Source: Candidatus Woesearchaeota archaeon (GTDB lineage: Archaea; Nanobdellota; Nanobdellia; SCGC-AAA011-G17; GW2011-AR17). Taken from it: 35,433 nucleotides of DNA. Under the pieces are notes generated by a model, which was not told the origin of the DNA, ran no database searches, and was given only the letters and a program-made list of their open reading frames with translations. Within the stretch, counting starts at the first letter, position 1. Every line of letters begins with the position of its first letter. Below are positions 7,455 through 31,880 of this stretch, one piece after another. Location: NCBI GenBank assembly GCA_003694495.1, contig RFJO01000038.1, forward strand, positions 1-35,433, given 5' to 3'. The position numbers and the translations under genes are program-made.

Positions 7455-10400
7455 TTATACCGGTGGCTGGAGTTGCGTGCGTAGGAAAATTGTTGAAGAC
7501 ATTTCGTTGTCGTGAACATCTTTGCAGGTTAGGTAGATTTTTTCTGTAAGAGGGTCAACATTGATTGAAACAATTTGTGATGTGGGAAGCTGGGAGTAGT
7601 CTTCGTTGTTGGTTGAGTAGGAACATGAAGCGTCTTCGTTAAGCATAACCTCAAGTAATGCGCCAGTGTAAGATAATCCAGTAATCTCTGGAGGTTCAGT
7701 GTCAATATCTACTGTAAAAGAAAGGTTTTCCCGTGCTACATTGTTAGCAATGTCCCTGCATTCTATAATGTAATCATACTGTTGTTTTGTTAAGCCTGAT
7801 AAAACCTGGGTGTGGTAAGTTGAGTTTGTGTTAAAAAACTCAATGTTGTTGTAGTAACAGATTGATTTGCCGTTTAACGCGCCCTTGGCAGTTTTAACTT
7901 GCAAAGTAATGTTGGATGAATAAATTGTGCCTGACGGGGAAAGCGCTGTGATAATGAGAGGCTCGGCTTTGCTGGCGCGCCAAATGTAACTTTCAGAGTT
8001 TTCGTTTCTTACTTGTGAATTCTCTGGCTCGTCACGGCACCTGAAATAATATGTGTTTAAGCCGTCCCTTACTGGAAGTTTTACCTGGCACTCGGCGTAC
8101 TTTGAGTAAATGCTGTCAGGCGGCATTTCTGCACAGGTCATGTTTAACGGCATCTGGTCGAACGGCATGTCCTGGGTTGAGGCGCGGCAGGAAAACGGCG
8201 AGACTTCGTCTACAACTAAAGTTAAACTGGTTTCGTTTGCGTTGGCTGCAACGTAGCCCATGTCTGGTATAGAAGATGAGATTAGCCTTGGCGGTTCTAA
8301 GTCTGGCGCTCTGTCAGTTGAAAATTCTATGACGTAAGGTGGAGATCTTTTGTCGTCTTTAGGGTTGCCGTTGGCGTCTTTACAGATAACATAAAACTTA
8401 TAATCTGTTGCAGGCTGGAGGTTGCCAATGTAGTAGTTGTGGACTTTGTCAAAGTAACTTTCGTTGAAGCGTAAGCTTAAATCGTTAAAAGTGTACTTAA
8501 GTTCTTTGTCAAGCTTGCACATGGACGGTTCGTTGGTTTGTATGCCAAAGTATAGCTTGGAAAAGGCTGGAAGTTTTTTGCTGCCGATAAGATAACCGTT
8601 TTGTTTTTCCACAATGCTGTAGTCTGTGGTAATATCTTTGCCTTGATAAGTTAGCTTGAACGCCTCATTCCATGGGGTTATGATGGGTTTGTTAACATCG
8701 TTCGGGTCGGCTGCTATGCATTTTGGGCGAGATGTGCCTTCGTTTTCTTTAATGAACTTGCAACCTGCGCCCAGGGACATGCATTTGTATTCAGAGCACG
8801 GGCTCATCGGGTCTTCGTCGCATTTTGCACAATTGTCGCTGCCGGGGGGAGGTTGCCAAAGCTTGCACTCGGTTGTGACAGTGCGTTTTTGGTATTTCCT
8901 GAAAACGATTTCTGTTAACACTATGTAAAGTGTTACCAAAGCGCCGATGCCGGACACCCAGGAGGCAGCGCTGCTTGCTGCACTAGTGCCAATGGCTTTT
9001 AATATTAAGCCTGTAAGCTGGACAGTTATACCGATGCCTTTTGTTATTGCCTGGGCGATCTTTTTGTCTTTGTAAACATCTTCTGCGTTCAAGTTAGATA
9101 AATATAACTCTTTGTTTGCTTTATGCCATACTTCTTCAAACGCTCCAGCCATGGTTTGGTCAACTTGCATTTTGGGTTCTTCTGATTGACGGTTGTAGTA
9201 GGATGACTGGAACGATTTTCCCCTGTCAAAAATTATGTCCCAGCCTTGGTAAGAATGGTCCCAGCTGCGTAGGAAACCTTCTTTTGAAAAACCGCCAATG
9301 TAATTATAATGTGCGCCGCAATCGCCTATGCTTCTGCAATAGTTGTTCTGTTCTTTGATATAATCGTTACTGAAACATTCACAGTTGCCTTCTTTTACGC
9401 AAGACCATTTCCAGTTGGTGTAAATCATTTTGGTGAAAACGGTTGTGCATTTCTTGGTGGCAGTGCTGCATGTTTGGTCTGATGCTGTTTGCGTTGTGGC
9501 AGATTTGGTTTGTTTTTGCGGGTTCCAAAACCTGAACCCTGGCGGGTGCTGCGGGATGCATGTGCCAGAGTTTTCGTCGCCTGCCCAGAAACAGTCCCTT
9601 AAGTCTGACCTTTCACAACATTCTTTGTCAAGCTTCATTGCCAAAGCAATATCTTCAGGGCTTGTTTTGTCTTTGGCTGTGTTACATATAGTGGTGCAAT
9701 CTTTCCAACGGTTTTCTTTGCAGGCAGCTTCACTAAACAAGTAGTTCTGGGCAGTGGCAGAAATTTTGCCCTCAGCGGTTTCTTTAATGCCTGTGTTTAG
9801 TGTCTCGTAAACGTCTGATTGTAAACAAACCTCTTCACGGAAATCTTTGCATGGTTCTACTATTTCTTCACCGTTAATGCAAATGTGACGGTAATGCCTG
9901 GAACCAGGAAGGTCTAACGACGGGCCAATTGCGCCGTCAAACTCGCACCAACTTTCGCCGTTGATCCTTCTACCGCCGTCACCTTCAACTACAGGGTTGT
10001 CCCAAGTGGTGGGGCAGTCTAAACTTTTGCAAACATAATCGCCGTCTTGAGTTTGGCCGCATAATGTGCCCTTGGCATAATCACAATCTTCTGCAACTCC
10101 TTCAGGATTTCCACAGGAGTCAAACCAGTAAACGTCGTCAGTGCCGTCAAGGCAACCTTTGTACGAGTGAGCCTTGCATTGTTCGCATGGCAAGTTGTTG
10201 TTTGAACAAAATAAACCTTCATAAAACCCTTCCCCACCAATGCCGTCCTGCATGTTGCATGTTGCACGCGACGTCCAAACACATTCTTCGTTGGCAGACT
10301 TGACACAACAGCCCCTGTCAGCCTGGCGGCAAATGTCTGAGCATTCTTGCTCGGACTTGGATTGTCGGAAGTCTTTGCTAAGCTCCGGGTAGTCTAGAAG

Positions 10401-10796
10401 AATGTTGTTGCATTTTTTTTCTGTAACATACGCACAACTTGCACCTGCTAACACACAACAACCCTTGTTGCATTCTTTTACTGAGTCGCATGTTGCGTCA
10501 GGGTTCCATGTGTAACCTGCGTTCTCGCACGCTGCCTGTGATGTCTGCTTTGAACATGATCCGTCAGGGGAAATGCAACAGCCTAACTTGCAAAAAGACG
10601 TGTCTTCACATTTTTGATAGTTGGCAACTTTGTAAGAGTCGTCGCATTGAGATGAAGAAGTGTAAACACAACTTTCACCGGATAAAGTTTGCTCGCAACA
10701 TGCTTTGCCATCATCTTCTGCAGTTACAGGAAGTAAGTAAACAGTGAAAGTAATACTAATAACTAGGTAAATCATGAACAATGCTTTAAGCTTCAT
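7455..10796 (-). CDS. giant cysteine-rich surface protein, paralog B (1113 aa), unknown family
   Basis: ATG start, with signal peptide MKLKALFMIYLVISITFTVYLLPVTA followed by EDD. It has four [GA]CC-x6-8-C-x7-9-C modules, a conserved Cys core, a hydrophobic hairpin (aa 580-632), a post-hairpin Cys cluster (CKLWQPPPGSDNCAKCDEDPMSPCSEYKCMSLGAGC) and four Cys-pair repeat modules. I counted about 66 Cys by hand. It is clearly paralogous to 10834-14220. Confidence 0.85.
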   Translation of the reverse strand: MKLKALFMIYLVISITFTVYLLPVTAEDDGKACCEQTLSGESCVYTSSSQCDDSYKVANYQKCEDTSFCKLGCCISPDGSCSKQTSQAACENAGYTWNPDATCDSVKECNKGCCVLAGASCAYVTEKKCNNILLDYPELSKDFRQSKSEQECSDICRQADRGCCVKSANEECVWTSRATCNMQDGIGGEGFYEGLFCSNNNLPCEQCKAHSYKGCLDGTDDVYWFDSCGNPEGVAEDCDYAKGTLCGQTQDGDYVCKSLDCPTTWDNPVVEGDGGRRINGESWCEFDGAIGPSLDLPGSRHYRHICINGEEIVEPCKDFREEVCLQSDVYETLNTGIKETAEGKISATAQNYLFSEAACKENRWKDCTTICNTAKDKTSPEDIALAMKLDKECCERSDLRDCFWAGDENSGTCIPQHPPGFRFWNPQKQTKSATTQTASDQTCSTATKKCTTVFTKMIYTNWKWSCVKEGNCECFSNDYIKEQNNYCRSIGDCGAHYNYIGGFSKEGFLRSWDHSYQGWDIIFDRGKSFQSSYYNRQSEEPKMQVDQTMAGAFEEVWHKANKELYLSNLNAEDVYKDKKIAQAITKGIGITVQLTGLILKAIGTSAASSAASWVSGIGALVTLYIVLTEIVFRKYQKRTVTTECKLWQPPPGSDNCAKCDEDPMSPCSEYKCMSLGAGCKFIKENEGTSRPKCIAADPNDVNKPIITPWNEAFKLTYQGKDITTDYSIVEKQNGYLIGSKKLPAFSKLYFGIQTNEPSMCKLDKELKYTFNDLSLRFNESYFDKVHNYYIGNLQPATDYKFYVICKDANGNPKDDKRSPPYVIEFSTDRAPDLEPPRLISSSIPDMGYVAANANETSLTLVVDEVSPFSCRASTQDMPFDQMPLNMTCAEMPPDSIYSKYAECQVKLPVRDGLNTYYFRCRDEPENSQVRNENSESYIWRASKAEPLIITALSPSGTIYSSNITLQVKTAKGALNGKSICYYNNIEFFNTNSTYHTQVLSGLTKQQYDYIIECRDIANNVARENLSFTVDIDTEPPEITGLSYTGALLEVMLNEDASCSYSTNNEDYSQLPTSQIVSINVDPLTEKIYLTCKDVHDNEMSSTIFLRTQLQPPV
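8901..9059 (-). other. hydrophobic hairpin region of paralog B
   Basis: IAQAITKGIGITVQLTGLILKAIGTSAASSAASWVSGIGALVTLYIVLTEIVF. The second helix is clearly hydrophobic, while the first is weaker and amphipathic. Confidence 0.5.
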
Positions 10797-10818
10797 TGAG
10801 AAATATAATAGAAAGAGA

Positions 10819-10826
10819 TATTTAAA
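10819..10826 (-). promoter_or_regulatory. TATA-box-like element upstream of giant paralog B
   Basis: The minus strand reads TTTAAATA 23-30 nt upstream of the ATG at 10796, inside the 37-nt gap between paralogs A and B. Confidence 0.45.
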
Positions 10827-10833
10827 TGCTTTA

Positions 10834-13800
10834 CTATGAACCTATTGTCTTAACATTTGATGGAGTAGAAGTTGGAGCGTTTGGAATGGTGGGTAAGACG
10901 GATTTTTTTACAACTTTAATCCTTGGCAAGTAAGGTACAATGTTTACCGGGTTCATGATGTTGTCAAACAAGTCTTTACAAATTAAAGTGTAACTCCCTT
11001 CACCGGATAAAGAATGAATATCAGAGTTTATCGCAGAAGTTTTGCCTTGCCCGAAAACAAAGCTTGAGTTCATGTACTCGCACGTGGCTGGCTCGTTTAG
11101 TTTTACTATAATATTATCTCCGGATTTTTTTAACGATGTTACAAAGGGTGCGTCATAGTCTCTTATTGAGGTGAAGTTGATTTCAGTTAGTGCAACGTTT
11201 TCAACGTAGTCAGTGCAACGAATGTTGAAGTTGTATTGCCCTGGGGGAAGGTCAGTGAAAACGTTTTCATTTTTTGAAGTGTTTGTCACGCCGAACGCGC
11301 CCGAGACTTTATCACTGTCGTAAGTGCATGAAGCTGTGCCGTCAGCGCCGCCGGAAACCTGTACGAACATCGTGATGTTTTTATCGTACAATTCGCCTGA
11401 AGGACCTTTTGCAATGATTTCCAATGGAGGGGTTTTCTCAAACTGTACAACGTAACTTTCAGTGTTGGTGTTAGGTTCAGAGTTGACAGGGTGGTCCTGG
11501 CAACGGATGTAGTAAGTGTTTGCGCCTTCGCTAACGTTTACTAATGCGGCGCAGTAGTTGTAGGATGAGTAAAGTGACTCTGGAGGGTTTTGCGCGCAGC
11601 CCATCTCTGTTTCCATTAATTCGTAATCTTGATCATGGGTGGAGATCTTACAATCAAACTCTGAAACTTCGTCAACATAAACCATTATTGGTGTGCTGTT
11701 TTTATTATGTGCAATCTTGTTGTTTTTTGGAAGGTAAGTTGAAACTATGTAAGGCACGTCAAGGTCGGGAGAGTTGTCGGTCTTGAACTCTATAATGTAC
11801 GGCGTAACGTATTCGTCGTCTTTAGGGTTAGGCTGGCTGTCCCTGCAGGCGATGTAAAACTTGTACTCTGTGTCCGGCTGAAGGTTGTTGTATGTGATGT
11901 TATGAACACTGTCGTAAAACGTGTCTGGCATAGGAGATGTGTAGTCGGTGAAAAGGTATTTGTCTTTAAACTCGGTTGTGTAATAACACTGTGAAGGTTC
12001 ATTGGTTTGAATGCCGAAGGATACTTTTGAAAAGGCTGGAACCTCTGGATTTATTTTGTAGCCTGATGGTGTAGATGAGATTGTGTACTGTTGGGTTATA
12101 TCGTTGCGTTTTGAAACAACTTTTAATGATTCAGGGTGAGGTTTGATGACGGGTTTTTCAACATCTTTTGGATTAGCGTTAATACAGGTTTCCCTGCCAG
12201 TGCCTTCGTTTTCTGCAATGAAACGACAGTTTGCGCCCAGTGACCTGCAACGGTATTCCGAGCAAGGCTTCATTGGGTTTTCGTCGCATTTTGAACAATC
12301 GTCGCCGCCTGGAGGAGGTTGCCATGGCTGGCAGGTTACTGTTACTGTTCTGTCTTCTGTTTCTGGCCAGGTGAAAGCAATTGTTAGTGCTGCTATAATC
12401 ACTCCGATGGCAGCAATAACCCATCCAATAACAGGTATTGATGCAGAAACCAATACCGGGGCAGCTATAGCTTCTAAAATTGCAACGTATGCTACCATGC
12501 CCAATCCAACTAAAGCAATAGTCCCACCAATAACGCCTCCAGATATTGCTCCTTCATAGCCTCTTATACCACCTAATTTGCCCCAATAATCTTGCATACT
12601 AAACTTACCAAAATCAAGAGCATTGCCTGCCTGTTTCCATTTTTCCAAAAAGTTTCCGGCCATTTCTTCATCTACTCTAATTTTTGGATTACCAACTGGA
12701 TCTTTTTCCCATGTTCTAATTGAACCATCATTAGTAAATTTCCCTAAATAATTATAATGTGCGCCGCAATCTCCAAGGCTTCTACAGAACTGGTTCCTTG
12801 TTTGCAAAAACTCATCTTTGTAAACATCACAGTTATTTTTGCATTCCCATTTTGACGTAACATCTAATTTTTTCCTACCCCACTTTGCTTTCGCTTCATA
12901 AGTTCCTTTTTCGCATTCTTCAACTGCACTTGCGTCAGGAGTTTGCTGGTTTTCATCATCAGACCAAAACTTTAACCCTGGAGCAACTAATGGGATGCAA
13001 AGACCATTATTTTCATCTTCACTAATCCATTCACAATCCCTTAAATCACTCCGTTCACAACATTGCTTATCTTCTTTCATTCTAATCTTTTGTTCTTCTT
13101 CATCTTTTGCATCTTTAGCAGTGTTGCAGGTAGTGGTACAATCTTTCCATCTGTTTGGTTTACATTGCGCAACTTTCATTTCTCCTTGAGGCGCATCTGT
13201 GGCAGTTATCGAAGTACAAATCTCTTCCCTGTAATCTTTACACGGCTCAACAATCTCTTGACCGTTAATGCAAATGTGACGATAATGCCTGGAACCAACC
13301 ACGTCAAAAGTTGGGCCAACCTTTGCATCATAAGAACACCAACTTTCGCCATTCAACCTTGTTTTACCGTTTTGAGGGTCAGTAGATGTTGGGTCTTCCC
13401 AGGTAGTGATACAGTTTACACTTTTACAGTAAGCTTCTTCATGAAACGAGTCCGCTTCACTGCAAATTGAACTTTTGTAAGTGTAATCACAATCTTCTGC
13501 AACATCTTCTGGGTTACCACAGGAGTCAAACCAGTAAACGTCTTCTTCACCGTCAAGGCAACCTTTTCTGTAATGCCTTTCACATTCGCAGTTTAAGTTT
13601 TGGTTAGAACAGAAAACGTCTTTATAGAACCCGTTACCGCCAACACCGTCAGGCAACCCGCAATTTCCTCTCGTGCCCCATGTGCAGCTATCATCTTTAA
13701 CACAACACCCCCTGTCGGCTGAACGGCAAATTGCAGTGCACTCAAACTCTGAGCCCGACTGCCTAAAATCTTTATCAAGCTCAGGGTAATTTTCTAGCAT

Positions 13801-14220
13801 AATATCGCACCTTTGTTCTGTCACGTAAGAACAAGTTGCACCGCCAAGAACGCAACAACCTTTCTTGCATTCTTGTACAGAGGAACATTCCGCGTCAGCC
13901 ACCCATTTGAACCCTTGCAGTTCGCAAGCAGCTTTAGAAGTCTGTTTTGAACATGATCCTTCGTCAGTAACACAACAACCTAATGCGCAGTAAGTTGTAT
14001 CTTCACATTTCTTGAACGTCTCAATATTATAATCCTGGTTGCAGTTTTCAACTGAAGTGTAAACGCAATTGTCTCCAGATATAGTTTGCTCACAACAGGC
14101 CATGTCTTTTAACTCTTCCTCAGCTGAAACTTCTTTCAAAGCTACACCCGAAATGAATGTTAAGCTTATTATAAGATAAATCATAAAAACAGCTTTTTCT
14201 TTTATCAACCCTTTTTTCAT
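10834..14220 (-). CDS. giant cysteine-rich surface protein, paralog A (1128 aa), unknown family
   Basis: ATG start 21-30 nt downstream of a TTTTAAATTT box. The signal peptide is ...MIYLIISLTFISGVALKEVSA followed by EEE. The block order matches paralog B (ACCEQTISGDNC..., DVYWFDSCGNPEDVAEDCDY, GSRHYRHICINGQEIVEPCKDYREEIC, CRSLGDCGAHYNYLG). There are two strong TM helices (aa 558-617), then CQPWQPPPGGDDCSKCDENPMKPCSEYRCRSLGANC, followed by four repeat modules. Confidence 0.85.
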   Translation of the reverse strand: MKKGLIKEKAVFMIYLIISLTFISGVALKEVSAEEELKDMACCEQTISGDNCVYTSVENCNQDYNIETFKKCEDTTYCALGCCVTDEGSCSKQTSKAACELQGFKWVADAECSSVQECKKGCCVLGGATCSYVTEQRCDIMLENYPELDKDFRQSGSEFECTAICRSADRGCCVKDDSCTWGTRGNCGLPDGVGGNGFYKDVFCSNQNLNCECERHYRKGCLDGEEDVYWFDSCGNPEDVAEDCDYTYKSSICSEADSFHEEAYCKSVNCITTWEDPTSTDPQNGKTRLNGESWCSYDAKVGPTFDVVGSRHYRHICINGQEIVEPCKDYREEICTSITATDAPQGEMKVAQCKPNRWKDCTTTCNTAKDAKDEEEQKIRMKEDKQCCERSDLRDCEWISEDENNGLCIPLVAPGLKFWSDDENQQTPDASAVEECEKGTYEAKAKWGRKKLDVTSKWECKNNCDVYKDEFLQTRNQFCRSLGDCGAHYNYLGKFTNDGSIRTWEKDPVGNPKIRVDEEMAGNFLEKWKQAGNALDFGKFSMQDYWGKLGGIRGYEGAISGGVIGGTIALVGLGMVAYVAILEAIAAPVLVSASIPVIGWVIAAIGVIIAALTIAFTWPETEDRTVTVTCQPWQPPPGGDDCSKCDENPMKPCSEYRCRSLGANCRFIAENEGTGRETCINANPKDVEKPVIKPHPESLKVVSKRNDITQQYTISSTPSGYKINPEVPAFSKVSFGIQTNEPSQCYYTTEFKDKYLFTDYTSPMPDTFYDSVHNITYNNLQPDTEYKFYIACRDSQPNPKDDEYVTPYIIEFKTDNSPDLDVPYIVSTYLPKNNKIAHNKNSTPIMVYVDEVSEFDCKISTHDQDYELMETEMGCAQNPPESLYSSYNYCAALVNVSEGANTYYIRCQDHPVNSEPNTNTESYVVQFEKTPPLEIIAKGPSGELYDKNITMFVQVSGGADGTASCTYDSDKVSGAFGVTNTSKNENVFTDLPPGQYNFNIRCTDYVENVALTEINFTSIRDYDAPFVTSLKKSGDNIIVKLNEPATCEYMNSSFVFGQGKTSAINSDIHSLSGEGSYTLICKDLFDNIMNPVNIVPYLPRIKVVKKSVLPTIPNAPTSTPSNVKTIGS
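12370..12549 (-). other. two-helix transmembrane hairpin of paralog A
   Basis: AISGGVIGGTIALVGLGMVAYVAILEAIAAPVLVSASIPVIGWVIAAIGVIIAALTIAF forms two ~22-25 residue hydrophobic stretches joined by a short turn. Confidence 0.7.
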
Positions 14221-26668: not shown

Positions 26669-27079
26669 ATGATGAAATATGAAGAGATGCTGGACAGGGC
26701 GTTCAAGCTTATGCCGGAAATTAATACTAAAGGTGAAAGGTTTGAAGTGCCTAAAGCGCATGGAAGAATTCAAGGTAATACTACAATCATAACAAATTTT
26801 CAACAAATGGTGCAGTTGTTTAGAAGAGATAGTGAGCATTTTCTTAAGTTTTTACAAAAAGAACTTGCAACGCCTGCACAGATTGACGGACCAAGGTTGG
26901 TGCTTAAAAGAAAACTTAGCCCGGCGCTGATTAATGCTAAGATAAAAAAATATGCAGACGAGTTTGTGTTGTGTTATACATGTAAAAAACCTGACACTCA
27001 AATAATTGAAGAAAACGGTGTGAATGTGCTTAAATGTGCAGCTTGCGGTGCTAAACATAAAATTAAGTCTGTGTTTTGA
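26669..27079 (+). CDS. eif2b: translation initiation factor aIF2 beta subunit
   Basis: YEEMLDRAF...ERFEVPKA...GNTTIITNF...FLKFLQKELATPAQIDG..LVLKRK, and a C-terminal zinc ribbon CYTCKKPDT...CAACG. Confidence 0.9.
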   Translation: MMKYEEMLDRAFKLMPEINTKGERFEVPKAHGRIQGNTTIITNFQQMVQLFRRDSEHFLKFLQKELATPAQIDGPRLVLKRKLSPALINAKIKKYADEFVLCYTCKKPDTQIIEENGVNVLKCAACGAKHKIKSVF

Positions 27080-27549
27080 AAATGGATGATTATGTGAAAA
27101 CTGAATATAAAAAACTTCAACAAAAGTATAACCTGCCAGAATATAAAAAGTTTAACGACGTTTTTGAAATTGTTTCAATCGAGGAAAATAAGTCTGGAAA
27201 GTTTGCAAATGCATTAACCAGGGTGGTGCATGGAAAAATTAAGTTCTTTTTAACTTTCTTTGACCCATTTCTTTTACCACAACCAAATTCAGCCTATATG
27301 ATGATTGTTTCGAAAGATATAGGCAGATTAAGAGAAGGTTTGCTTGAGGTGTATAAAGAATTAATGGTTGATTATAATAATGGATATTTGGTTCTTTTGA
27401 AAGGTGAAAAGGAAATGATGAATTATGTTAAAGATATCTGGAAAAAGCATGAAGCATATAAAAAGAAGTTGATAAAGTTTATTGAAGAATTAAATAAGAT
27501 AGTTTTAAAAACAACTGATGTTAAAGAAAATAAAGGGTATTTAGGATGA
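27076..27549 (+). CDS. hypothetical protein (157 aa)
   Basis: The ORF is translationally coupled on both sides (4-nt overlaps at 27076-27079 and 27546-27549). No motif recognised. Confidence 0.5.
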   Translation: MKMDDYVKTEYKKLQQKYNLPEYKKFNDVFEIVSIEENKSGKFANALTRVVHGKIKFFLTFFDPFLLPQPNSAYMMIVSKDIGRLREGLLEVYKELMVDYNNGYLVLLKGEKEMMNYVKDIWKKHEAYKKKLIKFIEELNKIVLKTTDVKENKGYLG

Positions 27550-27833
27550 TATTGGTAAAAATGCATAAGGACGGAGTGCTTGCACTTTGCGACGAAAACC
27601 TTGTAGGGAAAAAAATTGAACATGACTTATTACAGCTTGACGTGACGGAAAGGTTCTATAAAGGCGAAGAAAAAAGTAAAGAAGAAATACTTACTTTGGC
27701 TGAGGATGCAGCCACAATAAACATTGTAGGTGAAGAAGCTGTGAAGTTTGCAATAGATAATAAAATTGTGGATGAAGGGCAAATAATATACATTGGCGAC
27801 GTGCCGCATGCGCAAGTGTTTAAGATCCAATGA
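27546..27833 (+). CDS. DUF424-family archaeal protein
   Basis: 95 aa. VLALCDENLVGKK...LDVTERFYKGEE...INIVGEEAVKFAIDNKIVDEGQIIYIGDVPHAQVF matches my memory of the conserved DUF424 pattern. Confidence 0.6.
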   Translation: MILVKMHKDGVLALCDENLVGKKIEHDLLQLDVTERFYKGEEKSKEEILTLAEDAATINIVGEEAVKFAIDNKIVDEGQIIYIGDVPHAQVFKIQ

Positions 27834-28141
27834 AAGATAACGTTTATAGCAAGAACCAGTATTTTGAAGCCGTGATACAGTTGAGGCCTTATAATGAAGA
27901 AGTTATGAGGTTTATAGAAAACCAAGTTAAAAAGCAAGATAAAGTGTTTATTTCCAGGGTTGAAAAGCTTAAAACTGGTGTTGATATATATATCTCATCG
28001 CAAAGGTTTGCAAGAACACTCGGGCAAAAACTTAAACGTTCTTTTAAGGGGGAACTAAAAATAACTAAAACCTTGTTCGGAAGGGATAAACTGAAAAGCA
28101 AGGATATATATAGAGGAACTGTGTTGTTTAGGTTAGAGTAA
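27830..28141 (+). CDS. small NMD3-related protein (COG1499-like core without the N-terminal zinc cluster)
   Basis: 103 aa with no Cys. YFEAVIQLRP...ISRVEKLKTGVDIYISS..FARTLGQKLKRSFKGELKITKTLFGRD...YRGTVLFRL resembles the post-zinc-finger segment of archaeal NMD3 homologs. This call is from memory only. Confidence 0.4.
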   Translation: MKDNVYSKNQYFEAVIQLRPYNEEVMRFIENQVKKQDKVFISRVEKLKTGVDIYISSQRFARTLGQKLKRSFKGELKITKTLFGRDKLKSKDIYRGTVLFRLE

Positions 28142-28181: not shown

Positions 28182-28535
28182 ATGAACAAGAAAAAGGAAT
28201 TGCAAAAGAAGCAAGAACAACAGCAACAGATGGAAATACAAAGGGTTAAACTGCCTAGGGGAAACCAGGTGATAGGTATTCTTGAAACCAGGCTGGGTGC
28301 TTCAAAGATGAGAGTGAGGTGTTTTGACGGGAAAACAAGGATATGTAGAATACCAGGAAGGCTTAAAAGGAGGTTGTGGGTTAGGGAAGGTGATTATCTG
28401 TTGATTGAGCCTTGGGAGTTTGGCGGTGATGAAAAAGGTGATGTGATTTATAAATATAAATTTAACCAAGTTAATTGGCTTAAGAAAAAAGGCATAATTA
28501 AAGAAACTGTCCAGGAAGACTGGGAAGAGTTTTAA
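28182..28535 (+). CDS. eif1a: translation initiation factor aIF1A
   Basis: The S1-like OB core is VKLPRGNQVIGILETRLGASKMRVRCFDGKTRICRIPGRLKRRLWVREGDYLLIEPWEF...KGDVIYKY. Confidence 0.9.
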   Translation: MNKKKELQKKQEQQQQMEIQRVKLPRGNQVIGILETRLGASKMRVRCFDGKTRICRIPGRLKRRLWVREGDYLLIEPWEFGGDEKGDVIYKYKFNQVNWLKKKGIIKETVQEDWEEF

Positions 28536-29264
28536 ATGGAAAGGAAAGCAAGACCTTTAAGGTATAAAAAAAATATTTCTGCTAGGGAGAAGTTTAAAGC
28601 TTATGAAAATGTGTTTGACCAGGCAACATTAAGAGTATTGTTTAAGTTGTCTTCGCAAGGTTATTTTGATGAACTTCAAGGTGCCATAAAAATAGGCAAA
28701 GAAGCTAATGTATTTTTTGCAATAAAAGGGAAAAAGAAAGTAGTAGTTAAGATTTATAGAAAATCTGCCAATTTTAAGAAGATGTATGATTACATGGCGC
28801 CTGACCCTCGCTATATTGGTTTAAAACGGAATAAAATGAACATAATATCTACCTGGGCAAAAAAGGAGTACAGGAACCTGTTAAAAGCAAGAAGCGCAGG
28901 GGTGAAAGTGCCAACGCCTTATGCTGTTTACCAAAATGTTTTAGTTATGGAGTTTATAGGGGACAAAGAACCAGCACCTCAATTGAATAAAGTTAAGCCG
29001 GATGAGCCTAAACAATTTTACGAAACACTTATAAAATACCTTAAAAAACTATACCTCAACGCAAAACTTGTGCATGCAGATTTGTCAGAGTTTAACATCC
29101 TTAACGATAACGGAAAACCTGTCATAATAGATTTGTCGCATGCAGTGGATGTGCGATACCCAAATGTTAAAGCTTTGCTAAAAAGAGATCTGGATAACCT
29201 AGCAAGGTTTTTTAAAAAATTGAATGTTGAGGAAAAGGAAGTAAAATGGATTCAAAAGAATTGA
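28536..29264 (+). CDS. rio1: RIO-type serine/threonine kinase (Rio1)
   Basis: GAIKIGKEANVFFA, VVKIYR, WAKKEYRNL, LVMEFIG and LVHADLSEFNIL...IIDLSHAV are all present. It lacks the N-terminal wHTH of Rio2. The ATG directly follows the aIF1A stop. Confidence 0.88.
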   Translation: MERKARPLRYKKNISAREKFKAYENVFDQATLRVLFKLSSQGYFDELQGAIKIGKEANVFFAIKGKKKVVVKIYRKSANFKKMYDYMAPDPRYIGLKRNKMNIISTWAKKEYRNLLKARSAGVKVPTPYAVYQNVLVMEFIGDKEPAPQLNKVKPDEPKQFYETLIKYLKKLYLNAKLVHADLSEFNILNDNGKPVIIDLSHAVDVRYPNVKALLKRDLDNLARFFKKLNVEEKEVKWIQKN

Positions 29265-29797
29265 AGGTGCCAAAGGAAAGGTTGGCAGTTTTAATAGGTA
29301 AAGAAGGAGAAATTAAAAAGAAAATTGAAAGTCTTGGGCATGTTAAGTTAGATGTAAATTCTAAAACAGGAGACGTGATGATATCTGGCGAGGATTCATT
29401 AGACGTGTATATAACAAAAGATGTTGTGAAAGCTATAGCGAGAGGGTTTTCGCCAAAAATTGCGTTGAAATTGTTTAAGGAAGGTTATATGTTTGATTTA
29501 ATTGATATAAGAGATTATGTTGGCAATTCAAAAAATGCGCTTGAAAGGATAAGGGGAAGAGTTATTGGTTCTGAGGGTAAAGCCAGAAGGTACCTGGAGC
29601 ATGTGACGGAAACTAACATATCCGTGTTTCATAAGACTGTTGCAATTATTGGAGAAGTTGAAAATGTTACTATAGCCAGAAGAGCTATAGCGTTGTTGTT
29701 AGGAGGCTCGCCTCACGGAAATGTTTACAGGTGGCTTGAAAGGAAAAAGCAAGAGATGAGGAAAAGGCAGTTTGAAGAGGAACATGGAATATTGTAA
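29246..29797 (+). CDS. KH-domain RNA-binding protein (archaeal Dim2/Pno1-like)
   Basis: There are two KH-like segments: VPKERLAVLIGKEGEIKKKIE and RIRGRVIGSEGKARRYLEHVTETNISV. The conserved archaeal neighbourhood aIF1A-Rio1-KH supports the call. Confidence 0.8.
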   Translation: MDSKELKVPKERLAVLIGKEGEIKKKIESLGHVKLDVNSKTGDVMISGEDSLDVYITKDVVKAIARGFSPKIALKLFKEGYMFDLIDIRDYVGNSKNALERIRGRVIGSEGKARRYLEHVTETNISVFHKTVAIIGEVENVTIARRAIALLLGGSPHGNVYRWLERKKQEMRKRQFEEEHGIL

Positions 29798-30605
29798 CCT
29801 TATAAAAATAATTAAACAAAAAAAAGAGCTGAATTCTTTAAGTGATGAGTTTGTTCTTGGTATAATTAAAATATACTTAAAAAATGAAATGCCTAAACTT
29901 CTGGAAAACCAAGAGTGGTTGAATAATACTAAAAATAAGTATTTCAGAACTGTGGTGAAGAATGTTAGGAAAAACTTAAGGGAAGTTCACGGGGCGTTTA
30001 AGAAAAAAGGTTATGATAAAAAGTATAAACTGTTGGATGAAATTAAGTCGTTGAATGATTTTGAAGGTCATGCCAAGATATTAAAGCTGCACACGTCGAC
30101 AGCAGAAAGGTTGAAAAATTATATTGAAATATATGGTAAAATCTTAGAAAAAGTTTACAAGGTTGAAAGTTTGCTTGACCTTGGGGCTGGGCTTAACCCA
30201 TTGTCAATCCCGTTTATGGATTTTAAAGTTGGAACTTATTATGCTGTGGAGGTGGCAGAGGATGACGTGGAGTTTATCAATGCCTATTTTAAAAAGTTTA
30301 ACATTAAAGGGCATGCGTTTGTAAAAGACTTGACTTATGTTGACAATTTGCCAGAAGTTGATGTGTGTTTTATGTTTAAATTACTGGATACATTGGAAAG
30401 CCTGAAAAAGGATGTTACAAAAGAGCTGATAAGCAAGGTAAAAGCGAAATGGTTGGTGGTAAGTTTTGCAACAAAATCCTTGGGCGGGAGAAAAGTGATA
30501 AGCAAAAAAAGAACTTCGTGGTTTAAAAAGATTATAAAAGCGTATGAATATGATACATTTGAAGTGGATAACGAGTATTTTTTTGTTGTAAGAAAAGATT
30601 TATAA
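29772..30605 (+). CDS. ArmA/Rmt-type (FmrO family) 16S rRNA methyltransferase homolog
   Basis: Motif-by-motif resemblance to ArmA/RmtB as I remember them:
- LKLHTSTAERL versus IHSSTNER;
- SLLDLGAGLNPLSIPF versus ILDFGCGFNPLAL;
- YYAVEVAEDDVEFI versus YHAYDIDRAEIAFL;
- DVCFMFKLLDTLE versus DVVFLLKMLPVLK;
- LVVSFATKSLGGRK versus FVISFPIKSLSGKE and FPTRSLGGR.
An alternative start at 29784 is possible. Confidence 0.65.
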   Translation: MKRNMEYCNLIKIIKQKKELNSLSDEFVLGIIKIYLKNEMPKLLENQEWLNNTKNKYFRTVVKNVRKNLREVHGAFKKKGYDKKYKLLDEIKSLNDFEGHAKILKLHTSTAERLKNYIEIYGKILEKVYKVESLLDLGAGLNPLSIPFMDFKVGTYYAVEVAEDDVEFINAYFKKFNIKGHAFVKDLTYVDNLPEVDVCFMFKLLDTLESLKKDVTKELISKVKAKWLVVSFATKSLGGRKVISKKRTSWFKKIIKAYEYDTFEVDNEYFFVVRKDL

Positions 30606-30631
30606 AGAGGACTTAATTATTTTATGGCTAT

Positions 30632-30704
30632 AGTCCCGTAGTGTAGTGGCCAATCATTCAGCCCTTTGGAGGCTGAGACCCAGGTTCGAATCCTGGCGGG
30701 ACTA
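30632..30704 (+). tRNA. tRNA-Gln (anticodon UUG)
   Basis: Folded by hand. The acceptor stem is AGUCCCG/CGGGACU (A1-U72), the anticodon stem CAGCC/GGCUG, the loop CUUUGGA, the T arm CCAGG-UUCGAAU-CCUGG and the discriminator A. No CCA is encoded. Confidence 0.85.
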
Positions 30705-30724
30705 TTACTTATGTTTAATTGCAT

Positions 30725-30797
30725 AGCCCTGTAGTGTAGCGGCCAATCATCACGGACTCTGGATCCGTGGACCCAGGTTCGAATCCTGGCAGGGCTA
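30725..30797 (+). tRNA. tRNA-Gln (anticodon CUG)
   Basis: The acceptor stem is AGCCCUG/CAGGGCU (A1-U72), the anticodon stem ACGGA/UCCGU and the loop CUCUGGA. The D and T arms are identical to the neighbouring tRNA-Gln. No CCA is encoded, and the last 3 nt overlap the stop codon of the convergent truD. Confidence 0.85.
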
Positions 30798-31880
30798 TTT
30801 TTCCATAGCTTTTAACACCATGGTGGCGTAGCTTCCAGAAGGTAAAGAAAAACTTACCTTCTGTTTGAGTTTTTCCGGAAAAACATTATCTTTTTCTGCA
30901 GGGTAAAGGGTTAAATCCTTTAAAGTTATGGATGCGGGACGGTAGGTTGTCCTGTAAGATTGTTTGAACATTTTGGGTTCTATGTTTTCTTTGGCTAAAA
31001 TGTCAGAAATTATTGGCTTGAGATTTTTATTGTTCTCTACAAAATCGTAGCCGATTAAGGGGATTTTTAAATTGATAAATTCGTTGGTCATTGCCAGTTT
31101 TCCAATAACAGTGTCTATAAAGTAGTGTTCAAAGTTATCTTTAACGTAATTGTTTAAAATCTTGTTAAAGAGTAAAGATTGGTAGGAATGAATGAATAAG
31201 GTTAAAATTTGTTTGGGCAGTTGTTGGAAGGCTTTAAAGTAATCTTTTGGATGCTTTTCAAGATAAGTTATAACTTTTTTTTCAATAAGATAAGATGGTA
31301 TGATGCTAGAGTCAAAATATCCCCAGTTTTTTTCAATCTCTTGCCTGAAATTTTTGTGTTTTTCTGTTTCAGTTTCAAACGGGTTTGTTAAGTATATTTT
31401 CATGGCTTCCTCAAATTTGCGCTCAAGCAAAAGCTTGCCAACTAAGGCAGTGTTAGGTCTTTTACCGCCAAAGCGCTGGTCATCGTAATAGTTGCAGAAA
31501 TGATTAATTTTTGCTAAAGGTTTAATTAATTCTCTTGCAGTAATTATAAATTTATTGCCAATGTGAGAGTTTAACTTTAATGGCTTGTCATTATAACCAA
31601 CAAAATCTATTTTAATGTCTTTTATTCTTACCTTTAAATCTTCTTTTTTTAAGTTATATACAGACACTAATTGGGTAGTTATGCCTTCTTTGTCTTTCAT
31701 GCCCGATACATTAAACCTTTTCGGGCTTACATTAAGTTTTTTTGCAAGCTTTAATATTGCTCTGGATGTTGTCCAGTTCTTTTTTGTTAAATTAAAGTAA
31801 CAGTATTTGCCCTTAGATGATAACTTTATGTTGTTTATTTCTTCAACAACAAAATCTTCTGGGGAATATTTTAAAATCAT
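30795..31880 (-). CDS. truD: tRNA pseudouridine synthase TruD/Pus7 family
   Basis: The N-terminus is YSPEDFVVEEI. The catalytic motif is SGMKDKEGITTQ (GxKDxxAxTxQ type), and YYDDQRFG is also present. Confidence 0.85.
   Translation of the reverse strand: MILKYSPEDFVVEEINNIKLSSKGKYCYFNLTKKNWTTSRAILKLAKKLNVSPKRFNVSGMKDKEGITTQLVSVYNLKKEDLKVRIKDIKIDFVGYNDKPLKLNSHIGNKFIITARELIKPLAKINHFCNYYDDQRFGGKRPNTALVGKLLLERKFEEAMKIYLTNPFETETEKHKNFRQEIEKNWGYFDSSIIPSYLIEKKVITYLEKHPKDYFKAFQQLPKQILTLFIHSYQSLLFNKILNNYVKDNFEHYFIDTVIGKLAMTNEFINLKIPLIGYDFVENNKNLKPIISDILAKENIEPKMFKQSYRTTYRPASITLKDLTLYPAEKDNVFPEKLKQKVSFSLPSGSYATMVLKAMEK

Follow-up and report, generated by a model that had tools for sequence, protein, structure and literature searches.

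The stretch of DNA analysed here (the window) comprises 35,433 nucleotides, i.e. positions 1 to 35,433 of contig RFJO01000038.1 in assembly GCA_003694495.1 (Candidatus Woesearchaeota archaeon). On its forward strand, at 29784..30605, it encodes a protein of 273 amino acids which the Pfam family PF07091, matches in the PDB and an AlphaFold2 (AF2) model identify as a small-subunit rRNA methyltransferase of the FmrO/Arm family, i.e. a relative of the enzymes ArmA, Rmt and Sgm that confer aminoglycoside resistance. Upstream of it on the same strand lie the genes for the translation initiation factor aIF1A (28182..28535; PF01176 with 70 bits, NF003084 with 132 bits and thus above its cut-off), the atypical kinase Rio1, which acts in late small-subunit maturation (28536..29264; PF01163 with 178 bits, NF041310 with 228 bits and thus below its cut-off), and a KH-domain protein of the Dim2/Pno1/Krr1 type, arCOG04150 (29246..29797; TIGR03665 with 205 bits at a cut-off of 114, as well as PF21800, PF22891 and PF00013). 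Coordinates and profile matches agree with the neighbourhood given in the original prediction, including the overlap of the methyltransferase gene with the end of the KH gene. The source genome of this tiny symbiotic archaeon (843 kb in 106 contigs, about 90% complete) belongs to the DPANN group, since its closest relatives are metagenome-assembled genomes labelled Woesearchaeota, Nanoarchaeota or Nanoarchaeia, and a whole-genome profile scan finds the methyltransferase gene there in a single copy (75.8 bits).

The open frame of the methyltransferase gene extends over 29772-30605 (+) and would yield 277 amino acids from a TTG at 29772. The ATG at 29784 is likely to be the genuine start, because P0001, the protein's database entry (273 amino acids), begins there, because the N-terminus obtained in this way matches the N-termini of homologues in an alignment, and because a purine-rich GAGGA (29777..29781, +, inside the end of the KH gene) stands just 5' of it. 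With the 3' end of the 16S rRNA from the same genome reading ...GGAUCACCUCCU, this GAGGA possibly serves as a Shine–Dalgarno-like site. From the ATG, the methyltransferase gene overlaps the stop of the KH gene (29797) by 14 nucleotides; since this stop is overlapped whichever of the two starts is used, the two genes are almost certainly co-transcribed and possibly also translationally coupled.

Further upstream, on the same strand, the conserved cluster begins with four genes (26669..28141), the order of which is also found in relatives: aIF2beta (26669-27079), an open reading frame (ORF) of 157 amino acids without Pfam match that forms part of this conserved cluster (27076-27549), DUF424 (27546-27833) and an NMD3 C-terminal-like protein (NMD3C; 27830-28141), the first, third and fourth being Pfam matches. 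DUF424 and the NMD3C protein that it precedes are kept as a pair with aIF2beta and aIF1A across many relatives, and the NMD3C protein itself is a stand-alone protein of 103 amino acids whose match to NMD3 is confined to the C-terminal part (profile positions 141-243). On the 3' side, the methyltransferase gene is followed after 26 nucleotides by two tandem tRNA-Gln isoacceptor genes on the same strand, tRNA-Gln(UUG) at 30631-30705 and tRNA-Gln(CUG) at 30724-30798 (ARAGORN; Rfam RF00005), and then by a convergent gene for a TruD/Pus7-like tRNA pseudouridine synthase (30795..31880, minus strand; PF01142 with 283 bits, TIGR00094 with 184 bits, above its cut-off), whose stop codon shares about 4 nucleotides with the 3' end of tRNA-Gln(CUG) on the opposite strand. 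Beyond TruD there are genes for S15, recognized from its translation and by tblastn to relatives, and then S3Ae.

The methyltransferase is a full-length member of the FmrO/Arm family and a true relative of the 16S rRNA methyltransferases of aminoglycoside resistance, as had been predicted from its motifs. It matches PF07091 with 76.2 bits (E 3.6e-21, cut-off 27) and the generic 'Rmt family' model NF000466 of NCBIfam with 143 bits (E 9e-42); with the NCBIfam models for RmtB to RmtH it reaches 40-68 bits, i.e. it stays below the Rmt equivalog thresholds of 500-550. Among PDB sequences, all phmmer matches at E ≤0.01 are methyltransferases that generate N7-methylguanosine at position 1405 of 16S rRNA (m7G1405)—Sgm (2.3e-17), RmtF (5.9e-16), RmtC (about 8e-15), ArmA (8e-11) and RmtB (6e-9). 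The AF2 model, which was built on 17 homologues (mean pLDDT 92, pTM 0.88), starts with eight helices at the N-terminus, after which comes a core of alternating beta/alpha elements, predicted to represent an N-terminal helical domain that docks on the 30S subunit and a C-terminal class I Rossmann methyltransferase domain. When this model is compared with the PDB by Foldseek, the best 16 matches are all Sgm, RmtF, RmtC, RmtB or ArmA. They span the whole protein together with its helical N-terminal domain; the alignments with Sgm, RmtF, RmtB and RmtC comprise 272-295 columns, and the TM-scores for Sgm and RmtF are 0.82/0.86. BchU, as the next family, follows with an E of 2.6e-8 and a TM-score of 0.45, so profile and structure comparison alike uphold the proposed family, with no better match to any other. 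Several homologues already bear the name '16S rRNA (guanine(1405)-N(7))-methyltransferase' from the JGI pipeline, and are termed hypothetical by NCBI.

Conservation extends to the residues with known roles, which we took from the Sgm structure (PMC2896518) and the cryo-EM structure of RmtC on the 30S subunit (PMC10288597) and followed through 159 DPANN homologues aligned with the plasmid-derived enzymes RmtB, RmtC, RmtE, RmtF and ArmA, with Sgm added from its phmmer alignment. The motifs H-T-S-T-A-E-R, LDLGAGLNPL, an acidic motif II after Y-A-V-E, DVCFMFKLL and SFATKSLGGRK—the set on which the original prediction relied—are all present and align with functional residues of Sgm and RmtC. Residues R108, D131, G135, D156 and D182, by which Sgm binds S-adenosylmethionine (SAM), correspond to R109, D132, G136, E156 and D182; the first of these is R in 155/159 homologues and D132 is D in 158/159, position 156 is always D or E, position 182 is D or N in 150/159, and G136 is invariant in a 17-sequence alignment. 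Residues that position the target base are kept to a similar extent: of the 159 sequences, 157 have F or Y at F72 (RmtC Y60, Sgm F64), 156 have K at K199 (RmtC K204, Sgm K199), 154 have S at S105 (RmtC S107, Sgm S104), 152 have E at E108 (RmtC E110, Sgm E107) and 105 have K or R at K231 (RmtC K236). Of the elements with which RmtC distorts helix 44 (His54, Arg211 and Loop237-246 with Arg241 and Met245), the loop retains a basic residue at R236 (RmtC R241; K or R in 138/159) and a hydrophobic one at I239 (RmtC M245; M, I or L in 156/159), whereas His54 is R66 and the R211 column is variable.

The presumptive target is conserved as well. In the 16S rRNA of the same genome (G000:C97), helix 44 reads GCACACACCGCCCGUCAAACC on its 5' strand and AAGUCGUCACAAGG on its 3' strand, and it retains G1405 and its partner C1496 along with U1406, U1495, A1408, A1492 and A1493. 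RmtC docks on helices h24, h27, h44 and h45 of the assembled 30S subunit, an rRNA surface described as highly conserved (PMC10288597). Among the RmtC docking residues, the R50 column is R or K in 158/159 and the K47 column K in 151/159 of the DPANN homologues, the window's enzyme retaining R62 and K59.

Where the DPANN enzymes depart from the bacterial ones, the differences cluster in the N-terminal docking domain: there is an insertion of about 20 amino acids, K20 of RmtC is mostly replaced by E and H54 mostly by R; in addition, the h44 loop (RmtC Loop237-246) is one residue shorter. These differences could be an adaptation to the archaeal 30S surface. They also keep alive the idea that the protein belongs to the family by descent and has come to act on something else, i.e. 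a different guanine in 16S rRNA, 23S rRNA or a tRNA, an idea to which the adjoining tRNA genes and TruD would lend themselves and which is in line with the remark by Husain et al. that it is unclear whether the orthologue NEQ545 has the same function (PMC2896518). Such a change of substrate is hard to reconcile, however, with the near-invariance of the residues that sandwich G1405 (F/Y72, K199 and K231), with the retention of the loop that inserts opposite A1408 through R/K236 and the hydrophobic residue 239, with the retained docking residues R62 and K59, and with the superposition of the whole N-terminal domain on Sgm and RmtF (TM 0.82-0.86) together with the high conservation of the rRNA surface used by RmtC (PMC10288597). 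We therefore regard a different substrate as unlikely.

The gene is widespread in these archaea. An even sample of the same GTDB order contains it in 93/151 genomes, and in 72 of the 91 that are of high quality; throughout the phylum it is found in 178/301 good genomes, nearly always in one copy. None of 14 control genomes, including 4 archaea, carries the family. A locus search that started from 7 closer sequences returned at least 547 loci among GTDB species representatives, and a library of 1.8 billion proteins holds 1406 clusters at 50% identity. In an unrooted maximum-likelihood tree of 90 sequences with SH-aLRT support, a branch with 99% support has all six resistance references (Rmt, ArmA, Sgm) and one G+C-rich homologue on one side and all DPANN-type sequences on the other. 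Among the DPANN sequences of this tree, 16 GTDB family labels require 16 changes where the minimum is 15, shuffled labels require 59.8 on average, and 0/200 shuffles gave as low a number. The tree thus follows the GTDB families almost perfectly. Such a pattern is consistent with long-term vertical inheritance and losses in individual lineages, and it does not fit a mobile resistance cassette. As the tree is unrooted, it would be compatible with the enzyme having arisen first in bacteria or first in archaea.

The same data bear on the possibility of a recent acquisition of the gene from bacteria, or of an error in assembling or binning the contig. It was in bacteria that the family first became known, and one close homologue, P0056 (L168 6001-6876, JGI Ga0209542_10005889, and also L169), is labelled 'Candidatus Buchananbacteria', i.e. 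a member of the candidate phyla radiation (CPR). Yet the 35-kb contig is archaeal throughout (aIF1A, aIF2beta, Rio1, MCM, S3Ae), its G+C content is uniform around the methyltransferase gene, all 11 other gene-carrying members of the same GTDB family share its position, and the tree is congruent with taxonomy. Recent transfer or misbinning is therefore essentially refuted. P0056 itself nests within the DPANN clade beside the family f9 with 96% support. A transfer from DPANN to CPR, which this placement might have indicated, was dropped, since the P0056 contig also encodes a zinc ribbon of the TFIIS type (TFS type) and archease and is therefore probably a misbinned archaeal contig.

Gene order was compared in two sets of loci, an order set of 80 loci sorted by GTDB family (with f1 being the window's own family) and a wider set of the best 80 loci among genome contigs. 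In the order set, the KH gene is followed by the methyltransferase gene in 11/11 loci of f1, 5/5 of f15 and 8/11 of f8. A different position is seen in f14, where NMD3C precedes the methyltransferase gene in all 5 of its 5 loci (L136 (G014), L110, L111, L126, L144); in G014, the only f14 locus whose flank shows them, aIF1A and KH lie 3' of the methyltransferase gene, and the same is true for L078. The f14 loci and L078 thus represent a second insertion point within the same conserved cluster, so that the aIF2beta-DUF424-NMD3C-aIF1A-(Rio1)-KH cluster holds the methyltransferase gene at two positions in four GTDB families (f1, f8, f14, f15). In three f15 loci (L041, L043, L036), sequence reading identified a Top6B-like gene 3' of the methyltransferase gene.

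Other surroundings, mostly translation-related, recur in other families. In 10 loci the gene stands directly 5' of a diphthine-synthase-like gene. Among the best 80 loci, 14 show the order Pelota, methyltransferase, TrmB and the alpha and beta subunits of PheRS, 2 show it in full (and 2 more in part) in a series of a MiaB-like tRNA methylthiotransferase, the methyltransferase, a tRNA-binding protein and aIF2gamma, and in 12 it stands alone between divergently oriented pilin-like or secretion genes. A universal linkage to KH was not upheld: the gene resides in the aIF1A/KH cluster in 17/80 of the best loci and 29/80 of the order loci, and the linkage is family-specific. Translation is nevertheless the recurrent theme among its neighbours, and the link to KH is real though not universal. 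The synteny that the original prediction proposed to check thus exists, with KH in f1, f8 and f15 and with NMD3C/aIF1A in f14, but it falls short of being the rule, as most loci of the order set lie outside the cluster.

With an activity and an ancestry of this kind, it has to be asked what the methylation would be for. The same m7G1405 activity could be maintained as intrinsic resistance against the 4,6-disubstituted aminoglycosides of neighbouring actinomycetes rather than for ribosome function or biogenesis. All characterised members of the family do confer aminoglycoside resistance (PMC2896518, PMC10288597), the organism's own 16S rRNA has a drug site of the bacterial type (A1408, G1405, U1406/U1495), to which these drugs could bind in principle, and the uneven distribution of the gene, which about 60% of genomes have, would suit an accessory trait. 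On the other hand, the gene is inherited vertically, bears no mark of mobility and groups apart from the resistance enzymes. It also lies repeatedly in clusters of translation and ribosome-biogenesis genes, where stop and start codons frequently overlap, and not near transporters or mobile elements. Moreover, aminoglycoside uptake needs a respiration-driven membrane potential, an argument that has been made for CPR bacteria (bioRxiv 10.64898/2026.07.13.738296). The same limit on uptake probably holds for fermentative DPANN archaea. A resistance function as the reason for keeping the gene thus seems improbable to us.

Rather, the fold, the docking residues and the cluster context jointly make it likely that the enzyme constitutively methylates N7 of the G1405-equivalent in the organism's own 16S rRNA in a housekeeping role, a reading that is well supported, although we infer it from sequence comparison and modelling. 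As established for homologues of these factors, the A site at the top of helix 44 is where aIF1A binds, and in late pre-40S particles the decoding centre and the platform are taken up by Rio kinases and Dim2/Pno1. Based on these sites of the aIF1A, Rio and Dim2 homologues together with the docking sites of RmtC, methylation would take place on the late pre-30S or the mature subunit. In the proposed sequence of events, the methyltransferase would be expressed together with aIF1A, Rio1 and the Dim2-like KH protein, would dock on the late pre-30S or mature 30S subunit, flip out the target base as shown for RmtC, and transfer a methyl group from SAM to N7 of the G1405-equivalent at the top of helix 44. 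This methylation would then be part of routine small-subunit maturation, and insensitivity to 4,6-disubstituted aminoglycosides might arise as a by-product. As an alternative purpose, compensation for a lost rRNA-modification machinery was considered and rejected, since fibrillarin (157 bits) and KsgA/Dim1 (122 bits) are both encoded in the genome. A preference for a housekeeping function over an acquired cassette, as voiced in the original prediction, is thus sustained by a mostly single-copy gene that is present in about 60-80% of good genomes, tracks GTDB taxonomy and resides in translation clusters, with the DPANN sequences split from the resistance references in the phylogeny.

Several observations weigh against such a housekeeping role. 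About 40% of the good genomes in the phylum are without the gene, which is thus dispensable. In the order set, 51/80 loci carry it outside the aIF1A/KH cluster, and some translation-related neighbours are to be expected by chance in DPANN genomes, given their small size and their abundance of translation genes. Two residues that are essential in RmtC have changed: H54 is R66 in the window's enzyme, in a column with R in 98/159 and H in 32/159 homologues, and the docking column of K20 is E in 106/159, with one or two lysines just before it. With NF000466, the score of 143 bits lies below the equivalog cut-off of 250. Finally, no experimental test of an archaeal member of the Arm family was found in the literature searched; m7G itself is barely visible in ordinary sequencing reads. 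For the broader proposal—that many DPANN archaea of the Nanoarchaeota/Woesearchaeota radiation carry a constitutive m7G1405-equivalent, which is introduced in the last Rio1/Dim2-dependent steps of small-subunit maturation by an enzyme that shares a ribosome-biogenesis ancestor with ArmA/Rmt—we see the chances as evenly balanced.

Elsewhere in the window, three very large adjacent ORFs (1332, 1113 and 1128 amino acids; 2639-14220, minus strand) have no Pfam match at E ≤1e-5, and the G+C content of this stretch is 0.40-0.45 as compared to about 0.35 in the rest of the window. They may encode giant proteins of the surface or adhesion type, which are typical of DPANN, or represent a foreign island.

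Seen next to the bacterial enzymes Sgm, GrmA, FmrO, ArmA and RmtA-H, the window's methyltransferase has the same two-domain fold, the SAM triad plus arginine, the H-x-S-T-x-E-R motif, the F/Y and K that position G1405, the SF-x-x-K-S-L-G-G-[RK] loop, in which the position of RmtC Met245 is hydrophobic, and a comparable length (273 versus 251-281 amino acids). Its identity to the plasmid-borne enzymes is 23-30% by tblastn and 21-25% in Foldseek alignments. The setting is different, however, as it is a chromosomal, vertically inherited gene of an archaeal host, operonic with ribosome-biogenesis genes and lacking any mobile-element context, whereas the plasmid-borne comparators adjoin TEM-1, a Tn3-like transposase and similar genes. 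In the role proposed for it, i.e. constitutive, non-essential methylation at the top of h44/h45 late in small-subunit assembly, the enzyme would be similar to the bacterial RsmF, RsmH, RsmI and RsmE and the universal KsgA/Dim1, which work on the same surface of the 30S subunit but belong to unrelated families and modify different nucleotides.

That characterised members of the family are bacterial, as the original prediction had it, holds for the characterised ones, but orthologues in Nanoarchaeota had already been reported. In 2010, Husain et al. reported the Nanoarchaeum equitans protein NEQ545 as 'the first archaeal ortholog' in the Arm family; its catalytic motifs were described as perfectly conserved, its helical N-terminal domain as diverged and its function as unclear (PMC2896518). 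Podar et al. in 2013 listed this methyltransferase, which has an orthologue in Nst1, among 15 Nanoarchaeota-signature genes (PMC3655853). By their published description, these two likewise represent the Arm family within DPANN; the reports concern two hyperthermophilic Nanoarchaeota and do not deal with context, distribution or function, whereas the present 843-kb genome has relatives labelled Woesearchaeota. A 2026 preprint describes grm-like genes in CPR bacteria and doubts their role in resistance (bioRxiv 10.64898/2026.07.13.738296). In the literature searched, we found neither a housekeeping m7G1405, nor accounts of the phylum-wide distribution, vertical inheritance or operon link of the archaeal members, nor follow-up work on NEQ545 or on FmrO/16S rRNA methyltransferases in archaea. 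Thus, archaeal Arm orthologues were known before, and their breadth, vertical inheritance and operon link are apparently undescribed. The finding extends the two brief reports of 2010 and 2013 and does not open a new category.

m7G1405 is the mark of high-level aminoglycoside resistance introduced by the enzymes of antibiotic producers and by plasmid-borne enzymes. If our reading is correct, m7G1405 would also be a normal feature of the ribosome in a large, vertically inherited archaeal clade, and the first 'housekeeping' m7G1405 in the literature searched. For resistome surveys this means that FmrO/Rmt matches in DPANN bins, or in 'CPR' bins that result from misbinning, ought to be left out of counts of acquired resistance genes, and contigs of the P0056 type would inflate CPR 'resistome' counts. 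These archaea would then offer a natural system for studying how m7G1405 affects decoding, and would bear on the origin of the resistance family itself: the clinical ArmA/Rmt enzymes and this archaeal lineage would share an ancestor in ribosome biogenesis, with either direction of descent being compatible with the unrooted tree.

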